Below, piece by piece: positions 12,380 to 43,393 of a stretch of DNA of 64,000 nt. The translations under genes were made by a program, and so were the position numbers. The notes under the pieces are model-generated. The model was not told the DNA's origin. It worked only from the letters and a program-made list of their open reading frames with translations, and made no database searches. The first letter of the stretch is position 1, and every line of letters starts with the position of its first letter. Location: the NCBI RefSeq assembly GCF_003334385.1, contig NZ_QOWN01000009.1; one strand, 5' to 3'. This DNA is from Escherichia coli. Its GTDB lineage: Bacteria; Pseudomonadota; Gammaproteobacteria; Enterobacterales; Enterobacteriaceae.

Positions 12380-13159
12380 ATGGCATTTAAGATCTGGCAA
12401 ATTGGTTTGCATTTACAACAGCAAGAAGCGGTAGCGGTTGCGATCGTGCGGGGCGCAAAAGAATGCTTTTTGCAACGCTGGTGGCGGTTGCCGCTGGAGA
12501 ACGACATTATCAAAGATGGGCGGATTGTTGATGCGCAGCAGCTGGCTAAAACGTTGTTACCGTGGAGTCGCGAACTGCCGCAGCGTCATCACATTATGTT
12601 GGCGTTTCCCGCCAGTCGCACATTACAGCGGTCATTTCCGCGCCCGTCGATGTCCCTTGGTGAGCGGGAGCAAACGGCCTGGCTGTCAGGGACGATGGCC
12701 CGCGAGCTGGATATGGATCCGGACTCCCTGCGCTTCGATTACAGCGAAGACTCACTCAGTCCCGCCTATAACGTGACTGCCGCGCAAAGCAAAGAGCTGG
12801 CAACGCTGCTTACTCTGGCAGAAAGGTTGCGTGTTCATGTGAGCGCGATCACCCCGGATGCCAGTGCATTACAGCGATTCCTGCCTTTTTTACCTTCTCA
12901 TCAGCAATGTCTGGCCTGGCGTGATAACGAACAGTGGCTGTGGGCGACGCGCTATAGCTGGGGGCGCAAACTGGCGGTGGGGATGACTAGCGCGAAGGAG
13001 CTGGCGGCAGCGTTATCCGTTGATCCCGAAAGCGTCGCGATATGTGGCGAAGGCGGATTTGATCCCTGGGAGGCCGTTTCTGTTCGTCAGCCGCCGCTAC
13101 CGCCGCCAGGTGGAGACTTTGCCATCGCGCTGGGGCTGGCGCTTGGGAAGGCGTACTGA
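12380..13159 (+). CDS. hofM: PilM-like type IV pilus/DNA-uptake assembly protein HofM
   Basis: 259 aa from MAFKIWQIGLHLQQQ; ATG at 12380 with AAGGAG 8 nt upstream; TGATG stop/start overlap with hofN. Confidence 0.9.
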   Translation: MAFKIWQIGLHLQQQEAVAVAIVRGAKECFLQRWWRLPLENDIIKDGRIVDAQQLAKTLLPWSRELPQRHHIMLAFPASRTLQRSFPRPSMSLGEREQTAWLSGTMARELDMDPDSLRFDYSEDSLSPAYNVTAAQSKELATLLTLAERLRVHVSAITPDASALQRFLPFLPSHQQCLAWRDNEQWLWATRYSWGRKLAVGMTSAKELAAALSVDPESVAICGEGGFDPWEAVSVRQPPLPPPGGDFAIALGLALGKAY

Positions 13160-38240: not shown

Positions 38241-38567
38241 TTAACCGCGCAGCTGCACCACGCCGTCTTTCACTCGCGCTTCGTAATGTTTGACGGAAAA
38301 CTGTTCGTCTTCCATGCACAAGCCGTCGCTTAAGCGAAAACGCTGTTTTTTCAGCGGGCTGGCGACCCACAGCTCGCCCTGGTGTTCCGCAATCAGTCCG
38401 CGTGACAGCACGCTGGACTCGAAGAACGGGTCGATGTTGCTGATCGCAAACACCTGATCGCTGTGATACGGGTGGAAAATCGCGACCTGCTCGTCACCTA
38501 ACAGCGCGCAGACGCCGGTTTCAGGCAGGATGTCATCGATTTTGCAGATGTCTTTCCACTGGCTCAT
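38241..38567 (-). CDS. nirD: nitrite reductase [NAD(P)H] small subunit
   Basis: 108-aa ORF MSQWKDICKIDDILPETGVCALLGDEQVAIFH. Confidence 0.95.
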   Translation of the reverse strand: MSQWKDICKIDDILPETGVCALLGDEQVAIFHPYHSDQVFAISNIDPFFESSVLSRGLIAEHQGELWVASPLKKQRFRLSDGLCMEDEQFSVKHYEARVKDGVVQLRG

Positions 38568-41107
38568 GCGTTGTCCTCCACCAGAGTTACTGGGATACGT
38601 TCATACGGCGTTGCCGGACGGTGCTGTTCGCGCTCTGGCACCATCTGCACGTTCGGGTCACGCTTGTCGCTGTTGATGAAGTGTTTGAAGCGAGTCTGCG
38701 CAGACGGCGTATTGACCGTTTCAGTCCACTCACACAGTACCGCTTCACGCAGGCGCGCCATCTCTTCTTCCAGATGTGCGTTCAGCCCCAGTTTGTCGTC
38801 AATGATCACTGCTTTCAGGTAATCGATGCCGCCTTCGAGGTTTTCTAACCACGGTGCGGTACGCGTCAGTTTGTCGGCAGTACGGATGTAGAACATCATG
38901 AAGCGGTCGAGATATTTGATCAGCGTTTCGCGATCGATATCCGCCGCCAGCAGATCCGCATGACGCGGTTTCATGCCGCCGTTACCGCAAACATACAGGT
39001 TCCAGCCTTTTTCAGTGGCGATAATACCCACGTCTTTACCCTGAGCTTCTGAACATTCACGGGTACAGCCGGAGACACCGAACTTCATTTTGTGCGGCGT
39101 ACGGATGCCTTTGTAGCGGTTTTCCAGTTCCACGCCGAGGCCGACGCTGTCGCCAACGCCGTAGCGGCACCAGGTGCTACCCACGCAGGTTTTCGCCATA
39201 CGCAGTGCTTTCGCATAGGCATGACCGGTTTCGAAGCCGGCTTCAATCAGCTGACGCCAGATCTCCGGCAGATCGTCTTTCTGTGCGCCAAACATCGCCA
39301 GACGCTGGGAGCCAGTGATCTTGGTGTAGAGATTAAATTCACGCGCGATACGACCTACCGCCATCAGCCCTTCCGGGGTGATTTCACCGCCCGGAGAACG
39401 CGGGATCACCGAGTAGGTGCCGTCTTTCTGGATGTTAGCGAGGAAGTTGTCGTTAGAATCCTGCAGCGGAGTATGTTCCGGCTTCAGAATGTATTCGTTC
39501 CAGCAGGAGGCCAGCAGCGAACCGACGGTTGGTTTACAAACTTCACAACCGTAGCCTTTGCCGTGTTTCGCCAGCAGTTCTTCGAAGGTTTTAATGCCTT
39601 CAACGCGGATCAAATGGAACAGTTCCTGACGCGAATAAGCAAAGTGTTCGCACAGGTTGTTGTTAACTTCGATGCCCTGTTTCGCCAGTTCCGCGTTCAG
39701 TACCTGAGTGACCAGCGGGATACAGCCACCGCAGCCAGTACCCGCTTTGGTTTCAGCTTTCAGCGCCGCAACTGTGTGGCAGCCTTTGTTGATGGCAGCA
39801 ATCAGATCACCTTTGGTGACGTCGAAGCAGGAGCAGATTTGCGCGCTGTCCGGCAGTTTATCAACACCGATAGACGGCTTGCCGCTACCCGAGTGTGCTG
39901 GCAGGATCAGGGAATCCGGGTTTTCCGGCAGTTCGATAGCGTTCAGCACCAGTTGCAGCAGGTTACCGTAGTCGCTGGTATCGCCCACCAGTACCGCACC
40001 GAGCAGGGTTTTGTTGTCTTCGCTGACAATCAGGCGTTTGTAGATCTCTTTACTTTCGTCGAGGTAAACGTAGCTACGTGCGCCAGGCGTGCGACCGTGC
40101 GCATCACCAATACCGCCTACGTCTACGCCCAGCAGTTTCAGCTTGGCGCTAAGGTCAGCACCTTCAAAGGCGTTTTCGCTACCGAGAATATGGTCAACGG
40201 CGACCTGCGCCATTTTGTAGCCAGGTGCTACCAGACCAAATACACGGTTGTTCCAGCTTGCGCATTCACCGATGGCGTAGATATCCGGATCGGAAGTCTG
40301 GCAGGAATCATTAATGACAATACCCCCACGCGGAGCAACGTCCAGACCACACTGGGTTGCCAGCTTATCGCGCGGACGGATACCGGTAGAGAAGACGATA
40401 AAGTCGACTTCCAGTTCGCTGCCGTCGGCAAAACGCATGGTTTTACGCGCTTCAACACCTTCCTGCACAATCTCAAGGGTGTTTTTGCTGGTGTGAACGC
40501 GCACGCCCATACTTTCGATTTTGCGACGCAGCTGCTCGCCGCCCATCTGATCAAGCTGTTCTGCCATCAGCATAGGGGCAAATTCGATAACGTGGGTTTC
40601 AATACCTAAGTTTTTCAGCGCGCCTGCGGCTTCCAGACCTAACAGGCCGCCACCAACAACGGCACCGCGTTTGCTGCGACGGGCGCAGGATTCAATGGCG
40701 TTGAGGTCTTCAATAGTGCGATAGACAAAGCAGTCCTGAGTATCAGAACCTTTGATTGGCGGGATCCACGGGTAGGAACCGGTTGCCATGATCAGCTTGT
40801 CATAAAAAACGGTACGTCCGGCGCTGGAGTGAATCACCTTCTCCTGACGGTTGATGGTGATAGCGCGTTCGCCGACCAGAACTTTGATGCCGTGTTTCTC
40901 GTAGAAGCCTTCGCGCACCAGCGACAGCTCTTCGGCGGTGTGGTGAGAGAAGTAAGACGAGAGGTGTACGCGGTCATAAGCGATGCGCGGTTCTTCACAG
41001 AAAACGGTAATATCAAAGTTGGCCGCATCAGATTTATCAAGAAGATCTTCGATAAAGCGATGGCCGACCATACCGTTACCGATAATTGCGAGTCTGACTT
41101 TGCTCAT
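38564..41107 (-). CDS. nirB: nitrite reductase [NAD(P)H] large subunit
   Basis: 847-aa ORF, N-terminal FAD/NAD fold AIIGNGMVG; ATGA overlap with nirD. Confidence 0.97.
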   Translation of the reverse strand: MSKVRLAIIGNGMVGHRFIEDLLDKSDAANFDITVFCEEPRIAYDRVHLSSYFSHHTAEELSLVREGFYEKHGIKVLVGERAITINRQEKVIHSSAGRTVFYDKLIMATGSYPWIPPIKGSDTQDCFVYRTIEDLNAIESCARRSKRGAVVGGGLLGLEAAGALKNLGIETHVIEFAPMLMAEQLDQMGGEQLRRKIESMGVRVHTSKNTLEIVQEGVEARKTMRFADGSELEVDFIVFSTGIRPRDKLATQCGLDVAPRGGIVINDSCQTSDPDIYAIGECASWNNRVFGLVAPGYKMAQVAVDHILGSENAFEGADLSAKLKLLGVDVGGIGDAHGRTPGARSYVYLDESKEIYKRLIVSEDNKTLLGAVLVGDTSDYGNLLQLVLNAIELPENPDSLILPAHSGSGKPSIGVDKLPDSAQICSCFDVTKGDLIAAINKGCHTVAALKAETKAGTGCGGCIPLVTQVLNAELAKQGIEVNNNLCEHFAYSRQELFHLIRVEGIKTFEELLAKHGKGYGCEVCKPTVGSLLASCWNEYILKPEHTPLQDSNDNFLANIQKDGTYSVIPRSPGGEITPEGLMAVGRIAREFNLYTKITGSQRLAMFGAQKDDLPEIWRQLIEAGFETGHAYAKALRMAKTCVGSTWCRYGVGDSVGLGVELENRYKGIRTPHKMKFGVSGCTRECSEAQGKDVGIIATEKGWNLYVCGNGGMKPRHADLLAADIDRETLIKYLDRFMMFYIRTADKLTRTAPWLENLEGGIDYLKAVIIDDKLGLNAHLEEEMARLREAVLCEWTETVNTPSAQTRFKHFINSDKRDPNVQMVPEREQHRPATPYERIPVTLVEDNA

Positions 41108-41165
41108 TTTTGCCTCGATTTCTTTTCTATTACCGCCTACCTTAACGATTCAGCAACCCCGCTTA

Positions 41166-41179
41166 TTGATGTAAATCAA
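41166..41179 (-). promoter_or_regulatory. FNR box of the nirB promoter
   Basis: TTGAT-GTAA-ATCAA perfect FNR consensus ~60-70 bp upstream of nirB ATG. Confidence 0.85.
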
Positions 41180-41333
41180 ATTCACCTTTATATACTCCTT
41201 AATGGGTATATTGCTGATTTGTATAAATTTTCTTAAGTCACGGAATTGTCTGATATTTCATGTTTGTGCAAAAAATAGACAAAATGAGCGGGTTTATAGA
41301 AATAGATGCACGTAGCGGGGGAAGAGAGGAAAA

Positions 41334-41368: not shown

Positions 41369-42550
41369 TTAATGAGAGGTCAGGGTGTTATGCTGACGGT
41401 GACGGCTGACGAAACCTAACAGGAAGCACATCACAAAGACGACAGCGTACAGACCGTTTGCTGTAAGCAGTGCCGCCTGCGGACCGCTATGTTCAACGAT
41501 CGGGCCGGTAACCACAAAGGTCAACATAGTACCGATGGTTCCGCAGGTCAGGACAAAGTTAACCAGTTTTGGCGACGGTACTTTGGTCTGCTGTGAACCC
41601 AGGGTGATGATGGTGGTATAGATCGCGCTGGAGAAGAAGCCCAGAGCGAGAATTGACCACGCCATATGTGCTGGTGTTCCGGTGTTAAAGACGTACATCA
41701 GAATCGCAGCCAGACCAGCCAGTACGGTCAGAATGCGTTGCAAATCAAAGAAGCGAAGAATAAAGCTGAACGCCCACATGCCGACCATGTATGACATCCA
41801 GAAGTTACTCACCAGCGTGCCCGCGTCGTTCAGGCTCATGCCCAGGCCTTTGGCATACTCAGGCACCCAGGAGATAAAACCTAACTGACCGAGGATGTAG
41901 CACAACGCCGCAACAGAGAGAAACAGTACGCCGATCCCCCACTTTTCTTTCTCTACCGGAGCATCCGTTTTTGGCGCATGTTTGCCCAGCGCCGGGAACT
42001 CACAGCCGAAGGTCAGAATAAAAATAGCGACATACACCAGCCCGATGCAGGCATAAACCCAGTACCACTCAATGCTGCGCGCCAGTAGAAACGCGGCGAT
42101 CATTGGGAAAATCATCCCAGCCATACTGAAGAAGGAGTCGGTAAATAACAGGCGGGAACCGCGCTGACGCCCTTCATACATTTGTGTTACCAGGAATGTA
42201 CCAATCGACATGGTGATGCCGCTGACCACCCCGAGAATGAACATCGCCGCCGAGAACAGCGCCAGGCTGTGGCTGAACATCAAACCGGCAACCGCCAGCA
42301 CCATCAGGAGAAAGCCAAAACGTAACTGCGTTTTCAACGGGACGATTTCCATCAGCCAGGCGTTGAGGAAGATAGAGATTAAAATGCCGGCGTTGAGGAA
42401 GGTGAAGGTATTACTCATACTGGAAACAGGCAGATTGAAATAATCGGCGATATTTCCCATCACCATCCCGGTGACAATAACCAACGCACCAGTCAGTGCG
42501 TAGGAGAGAAAGCTAATCCATGTGAGCTTGATGCGATTGCTGTTAGTCAT
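41369..42550 (-). CDS. tsgA: MFS-family transporter TsgA
   Basis: 393-aa ORF, 12-TM-like hydrophobicity. Confidence 0.92.
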
Positions 42551-42811
42551 GATTGGCCTGCGTTCAAAAATAAAATGGCATAGCGGGATATGCCGCGAGC
42601 GGGCGATTTTAGGTGATTTTGTGATCTGTTTAAATGTTTTATTGCAATCGGTTGCTAAATTGCATTTTAAGAGGTGATTTTGATCACGGAATAAAAAGTG
42701 ATCGTCAGGTTACATATATTTCAGATACGTAAAATTAGGTAAAGGGATGGCCTTGTTCTTGAAGGCTATTTAGAATCTCTTCACTTGCTTTTTTTCTGCT
42801 CTGTTTGTTAA

Positions 42812-43393
<582 letters not shown>

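Follow-up and report, generated by a model that had tools for sequence, protein, structure and literature searches.

The window, the whole 64,000-nucleotide stretch of Escherichia coli DNA that was analysed, contains a 270-bp divergent intergenic region of the chromosome (42551-42820) between tsgA and ppiA. The ORFs around this region are arranged in the order nirB, tsgA, ppiA, yhfG, fic, pabA, and argD, and the gene order around tsgA-ppiA in the K-12 MG1655 record is identical. All 5426 complete E. coli genomes matched a 701-bp query covering the tsgA-ppiA region, and the matched features carry the annotations tsgA and ppiA; the original prediction had named the same flanking genes, and both the ORFs and the RefSeq annotation of these genomes bear it out. 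The ppiA region of the window is 100% identical to that of K-12-type strains, and a 105-bp core shows at least 99% identity in approximately 70% of E. coli genomes. In a single strain, EC24 (NZ_CM169477.1, around 389948-391424), the tsgA-ppiA match is cut in two by an IS1B insertion. The features that are considered below are as follows.

38564-41107, minus strand: nirB (ORF).
41369-42550, minus strand: tsgA, a gene for an MFS transporter, divergent to ppiA (ORF and RefSeq annotation).
42606-42634, minus strand: predicted sigma-70 promoter of tsgA, with a -35 element TTTAAA (42634-42629), a 17-bp spacer, and a -10 element TAAAAT (42611-42606).
42612-42621, plus strand: first copy of the 10-mer GGTGATTTTG, which is no functional unit as such, only its 3' TG lying within the distal CRP core.
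42620-42635, no strand assigned: ppiA-distal, weaker CRP site with the 16-bp core TGTGATCTGTTTAAAT (TGTGA-TCTGTT-TAAAT), 8.0 bits.
42641-42648, no strand assigned: candidate CytR half-site ATTGCAAT, the tsgA-side octamer, with a TTGCAA palindrome (sequence match).
42659-42666, plus strand: candidate CytR half-site ATTGCATT, the ppiA-side octamer, with one mismatch to the CytR octamer GTTGCATT.
42673-42688, no strand assigned: ppiA-proximal CRP site with the 16-bp core GGTGATTTTGATCACG, which includes the second copy of GGTGATTTTG.
42729-42743, plus strand: CpxR box GTAAA-ATTAG-GTAAA, a perfect match to GTAAA-N5-GTAAA, in the ppiA control region and outside the CRP/CytR cassette.
42821-43393, plus strand: ppiA (rot), the regulated gene, for the periplasmic peptidyl-prolyl isomerase A (ORF and RefSeq annotation).

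The proximal CRP site has a full length of 22 bp (42670-42691) and is centred at 42680.5, i.e. 140.5 bp upstream of the ppiA ATG. It had been described earlier as GGTGA-TTTTGA-TCACG, an 8/10 match to TGTGA-N6-TCACA, which proved accurate; both mismatches are the outermost bases. The window contains 31 matches to this consensus with two or fewer mismatches against 24 expected, i.e. the background level, and because such a count is uninformative, sites were scored instead with a symmetric, 16-bp matrix, which was built from 106 other CRP ChIP-seq sites of ETEC strain H10407 (PMC4287617 Table 1) with the ppiA site excluded. The matrix confirmed the site proposed at the second 10-mer copy, assigning it 14.3 bits (training median, 13.1 bits) and the second rank among 63,985 window positions; the best position is the hofM site, itself a member of the training set. 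According to the exact score distribution, a score of 14.3 bits has P = 5.4e-6 per position, with 0.0014 such sites expected in the intergenic region. For conservation, a scan with TsgA taking one genome per species yielded 80 loci from approximately 25 genera of Enterobacteriaceae, and the intergenic region was extracted and aligned in 79; the footprint alignment comprises 80 sequences, also from approximately 25 genera. In the 79 species, the half-site bases GTGA (42674-77) and TCAC (42684-87) are 87-100% and 90-100% conserved, respectively, and the orthologue of the proximal site is the best CRP-matrix hit in every species (median, 17 bits). CRP occupancy is likewise documented: the ChIP-seq study in ETEC H10407 lists a peak 'ppiA/tsgA' whose MEME-called site is exactly GGTGATTTTGATCACG (PMC4287617 Table 1), and it is the proximal site only for which that study, and thus the published occupancy, speaks. 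Genomic SELEX also recovered ppiA among the known CRP targets (PMC3105977). The proximal site is a strong, genuine CRP site.

Several other sites were found elsewhere in the window. Two published CRP ChIP-seq sites fall in it, namely TGTGAGTGGAATCGCA (yhgE/pck) at 2535-2550 and, inside hofM, a site at 12838-12853 that is the reverse complement of GGTGATCGCGCTCACA. A further sequence, ATTGATGTAAATCAAA (41165-41180), in the intergenic region between nirB and tsgA, scores 11.8 bits on the CRP matrix and is a perfect fit to TTGAT-N4-ATCAA; most likely it serves the nirB promoter as its FNR site.

Upstream of the strong site, the matrix returned only one other notable site, TGTGATCTGTTTAAAT, whose full 22 bp occupies 42617-42638 with the centre at 42627.5, and whose left half overlaps the last two bases (TG) of the first 10-mer. 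Seven of its ten core positions match, its score lies near the 10th percentile of the training sites, 64 kb should contain approximately 20 sites of this quality by chance, and the median across species is 4.0 bits; the distal site is thus weak, and the sequence alone would not call it. Its GTGA (42621-24) is kept in 79 of 79 species, and its right half, TAAAT, departs from TCACA, yet A42632 and A42634 are 96 and 100% conserved, respectively. The start of this site lies 8 bp to the right of that of the site noted earlier at the first 10-mer copy, so that the functional spacing is 53 bp centre to centre. In MG1655 (U00096.3), the full distal and proximal sites correspond to approximately 3492480-3492501 and 3492427-3492448, respectively. 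A distance of 53 bp corresponds to 5.05 helical turns and therefore places both dimers on the same face of the helix; the window thus holds two CRP sites at the ~52-53 bp and in the helical phase of a CRP-CytR-CRP cassette. The best upstream partner of the proximal site is located at exactly 53 bp in 68 of the 79 species and at 52 bp in four, and a partner scoring 8 bits or more would arise by chance at exactly +/-53 bp with a probability of approximately 6e-4. In the alignment, the N6 spacers are 30-77% conserved, the flanks drift, and the stretch between the two CRP sites is nearly free of indels, a pattern which indicates selection on two CRP cores 53 bp apart and not on 10-mers 61 bp apart. 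The matrix score of the proximal site, its partner at 53 bp, and the deep conservation of both cores are beyond chance.

The palindrome GTGAT-TTTG-ATCAC within the proximal site, the distal site, or both may be used by FNR, a paralogue of CRP, besides or instead of CRP, which would link ppiA/tsgA to anaerobiosis; we consider this unlikely. The proximal core has only two mismatches to TTGAT-N4-ATCAA; however, both fall on the outer position of each half-site (GTGA, not TTGA), by which CRP and FNR sites are told apart, and G42674 is kept in 87% of the species. The region contains no other site with fewer than three mismatches to the FNR consensus. The published FNR ChIP-seq peaks include one upstream of ppiA (3,490,500 by the older MG1655 coordinates, or near window position 42640 by approximate conversion), but in the same study ppiA expression was without FNR-dependent change, and FNR and CRP sites were scored as distinct (PMC3688515).

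The gap between the two CRP sites contains two octamers that resemble a CytR operator. The tsgA-side octamer ATTGCAAT begins 2 bp past the end of the 22-bp distal CRP site, has two mismatches to GTTGCATT in either orientation, and is conserved in Escherichia and Citrobacter only in the alignment. The ppiA-side octamer ATTGCATT follows the tsgA-side one after a gap of 10 bp and ends 3 bp short of the 22-bp proximal CRP site; it is broadly conserved (T42660, T42661, C42663, and A42664, 85-96% in 79 species). According to PMC3454398, CytR operators consist of GTTGCATT-like octamers spaced by no more than 4-5 bp or by about one helical turn, at least one of which lies within 5 bp of a CRP site. 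The spacings observed here (10 bp between octamers and 2-3 bp to the CRP sites) fit these rules, as a sequence-level match to a weak motif. According to Sernova and Gelfand, the ppiA cassette scores low in most Enterobacteriales and can be made out only in the species closest to E. coli (PMC3454398), with which the poor conservation of the octamer at 42641-48 agrees.

Use of this operator by PurR or GalR, both of the LacI family, rather than by CytR alone, appears improbable. The LacI-family core AANCGNTT is present in TTGCAATCGGTTGCTA, a PurR ChIP-chip region is labelled ppiA/tsgA, although without a reported PurR motif (PMC3159470), and a GalR matrix hit with a score of 9.7 at MG1655 position 3492468 corresponds to approximately window position 42650, in the CytR operator (PMC5110547). 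However, the sequence differs from the PurR box at six of 16 positions, the GalR hit, known only from an in silico scan, has one of the lowest scores in the published list (PMC5110547), and CytR regulation of ppiA is experimentally established (PMC3454398). FNR, PurR, and GalR are regarded as minor rivals of, or additions to, CRP and CytR at ppiA/tsgA.

The intergenic region had originally attracted attention through the repeated 10-mer GGTGATTTTG, and its two copies (42612-42621 and 42673-42682, 61 bp apart) were indeed found to be exact, both on the plus strand, as was the TGATC said to follow the first copy (42622-26). The repeat really comprises 11 nt, extending one base further left (AGGTGATTTTG at 42611-21 and 42672-82). 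GGTGATTTTG occurs exactly twice in the 64-kb window against 0.18 occurrences expected, and two of 100 shuffles reached this number; exact 10-mer pairs spaced by 10-100 bp, however, number 27 in the window, spread over approximately 17 distinct places, whereas first-order Markov simulations gave 7.4 +/- 3.7 pairs. As a bare repeat, the 10-mer is not remarkable against the background of the window. Neither copy is kept as a unit. In the first GGTGA, G42612, G42613, T42614, G42615, and A42616 are conserved in 52, 53, 10, 54, and 10% of the 79 species, respectively; the second copy begins with G42673, which one of the 79 keeps and in whose place 54 have T, the CRP consensus base. Within E. coli, the first copy is altered in strain WP5-S18-ESBL-09 (GGCGATTTTG, i.e. 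GGCGA) and the second in strain 042 (AAGTGATTCTC, 11 nt); such variants break one or the other copy, and all CRP core bases are kept. A functional tandem direct repeat, i.e. one with both copies conserved as units at a kept spacing, was thus not found in the 79 species or the E. coli strains, and perfect identity of the 10-mers is restricted to a single lineage within the genus Escherichia. This identity is a by-product, each copy holding half-site sequence of the (G)TGA type with a run rich in T behind it.

The proposal that the two copies of GGTGATTTTG are equivalent CRP half-sites, marking CRP (or CRP/CytR) sites 61 bp or roughly six helical turns apart, is accordingly very hard to sustain. 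The copies are identical over 11 nt, and GGTGA matches a CRP half-site at four of five positions; however, the 16-mer that starts at the first copy (42612-27, GGTGATTTTGTGATCT) scores -1.25 bits because its right half is absent (GATCT). T42614 and A42616 of the first GGTGA (42612-16), kept in 10% of the species, are set against the adjacent GTGA at 42621-24, which is kept in all of them, an E. coli strain carries GGCGA at this position, and the CRP-like cores lie 53 bp apart in 68 of the 79 species. A distance of 61 bp, moreover, is 5.8 rather than six turns, and sites so placed would be out of phase. The true upstream partner of the proximal site is TGTGATCTGTTTAAAT. Mere chance, without any regulatory meaning, is the least credible explanation, since the abundance of close 10-mer pairs (27 against 7.4 expected) and the background frequency of two-mismatch CRP-core matches can account for no more than the exact repeat, while the matrix score, conservation, 53-bp spacing, ChIP-seq signal, and published genetics of the sites that it overlaps all speak for a function.

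We therefore conclude with high confidence that the region is the published cAMP-CRP/CytR control region of ppiA (rot), with CRP sites centred at 42627.5 and 42680.5 and CytR in the gap. The abstract of the 1994 description of this region reportedly mentions CytR between two CRP sites at a distance of 53 bp; on account of this and of the conserved 53-bp spacing measured here, the two sites can probably be equated with the footprints of that time. The locus is the same as that of the published K-12 ppiA (rot) region (Norregaard-Madsen, Mygind, Pedersen, Valentin-Hansen, and Sogaard-Andersen 1994, Mol Microbiol 14:989-997), and the two accounts do not differ in substance, both placing CytR between two CRP sites upstream of ppiA. 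According to the title of that paper, cAMP-CRP acts as an activator and CytR as a repressor of three of the four promoters (Mol Microbiol 14:989, as cited in PMC3454398). In PMC3454398 itself, ppiA is one of nine experimentally proven members of the CytR regulon, with a CRP-CytR-CytR-CRP cassette kept in close relatives of E. coli. For ppiA, a repression by CytR that depends on CRP and is lifted by cytidine is reported from the 1994 work, as cited in PMC3454398. The CRP-CytR-CRP cassette of ppiA is thus already known, having been published in 1994, and what is added here is a 10-mer repeat lying 8 bp off the distal site and itself unconserved. The original prediction of tandem CRP (or CRP/CytR) sites acting on ppiA was correct in substance, as regards the CRP pair with CytR between and the published regulation of ppiA, and in error as regards the register of the first site and the spacing.

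In the mechanism that best explains this cassette, CRP dimers would occupy the weak site TGTGATCTGTTTAAAT and the strong site GGTGATTTTGATCACG, and at high cAMP levels CRP would turn on the upstream ppiA promoters. A CytR dimer would bind to the ATTGCAAT-N10-ATTGCATT operator in the gap and touch both CRP dimers cooperatively, thereby cancelling activation (anti-activation), and cytidine would take CytR off the operator. The scheme draws on the sequence, matrix scores, spacing, and conservation described above and, for CRP occupancy in vivo, activation by CRP, and repression of ppiA by CytR, on the literature.

As regards the promoters themselves, we infer both the assignment of sites to promoters and the class I or class II geometry. 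A candidate extended -10-like sequence, TGcTAAATT (42653-61), would place the distal CRP site near -41 of an upstream promoter. A conserved candidate -10 (GTTACAT/GGTTACA, approximately 42709-15) would place the proximal site near -41.5 and the distal site near -94.5 of a second promoter. Such a -41.5/-94.5-type arrangement of CRP sites resembles that of deoP2. Both pentamers of the CpxR box are 100% conserved in 79 species; the motif GTAAA-N5-6-GTAAA has been published, and ppiA, a known Cpx regulon member, was one of the three genes first recognised as CpxR-regulated (PMC9600279), so that this box represents known biology. Downstream of it, CTCTTTAGAATC (42766-42777), which is almost invariant across 80 sequences and contains a -10-like TAGAAT at 42771-76, is probably a CRP-independent, possibly CpxR-dependent, proximal promoter of ppiA.

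On the opposite side, the search of the region yielded a single promoter-like site, the predicted tsgA promoter, with a start placed at approximately 42599. Its -10 element is 95-100% conserved in 79 species, and its -35 element and spacer overlap the distal CRP core, which would explain why the non-consensus right half of the distal site is 96-100% conserved. The CRP-CytR-CRP cassette may conceivably also switch tsgA, in the opposite direction; we offer this tentatively, as a prediction from position only. CRP or CRP-CytR at approximately -28.5 would block RNA polymerase from tsgA; alternatively, the strong CRP site at approximately -81.5 could be a class I activator of the gene.

The tsgA 5' leader was also found to contain a hairpin, GGCATATCCCGCTATGCC, at 42577-42594 on the minus strand, just past the predicted tsgA start, and in E. 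coli it is followed by ATTTTATTTTT, giving it a terminator-like appearance. A hand-drawn 6-bp helix of this leader is paired in 75% of cells over 21 species, with both sides changed in five of six pairs, and its covariation score was reached by 0 of 500 shuffles, which for a hand-specified helix represents moderate support; RNAalifold predicted no structure for the leader. The hairpin may stabilise the 5' end as a stem-loop, or it may act as an attenuator.

In the arrangement of its parts, the ppiA cassette resembles deoP2, the archetype of CytR anti-activation, in which the CRP sites are located at -40.5 and -93.5, i.e. 53 bp apart. Both have a CRP pair at about this distance and a weak two-octamer CytR operator in the gap, and the ppiA cassette would share the cooperative binding of CRP and CytR and the release by cytidine (PMC3454398). 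The four-box order (CRP, CytR half-site, CytR half-site, CRP) is also that of the udp, nupG, tsx, cdd, and rpoH cassettes. In contrast to deoP2, the ppiA product is a periplasmic folding enzyme and not a protein of nucleoside catabolism or transport, and the ppiA region also drives a divergent gene and has a CpxR box. The gene-proximal CRP site is the stronger one at ppiA by matrix score, whereas the distal site is stronger in most CytR promoters, and unlike other CytR cassettes, that of ppiA can be recognised in the nearest relatives of E. coli only (both according to PMC3454398).

As this case shows, an exact short repeat can mislead with regard to the register and spacing of the true sites that it overlaps. 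Beyond the correct annotation of the region, the finding has little significance; a reading of the raw sequence nevertheless caught an instance of textbook-type combinatorial control, in which activation by CRP is combined with anti-activation by CytR.
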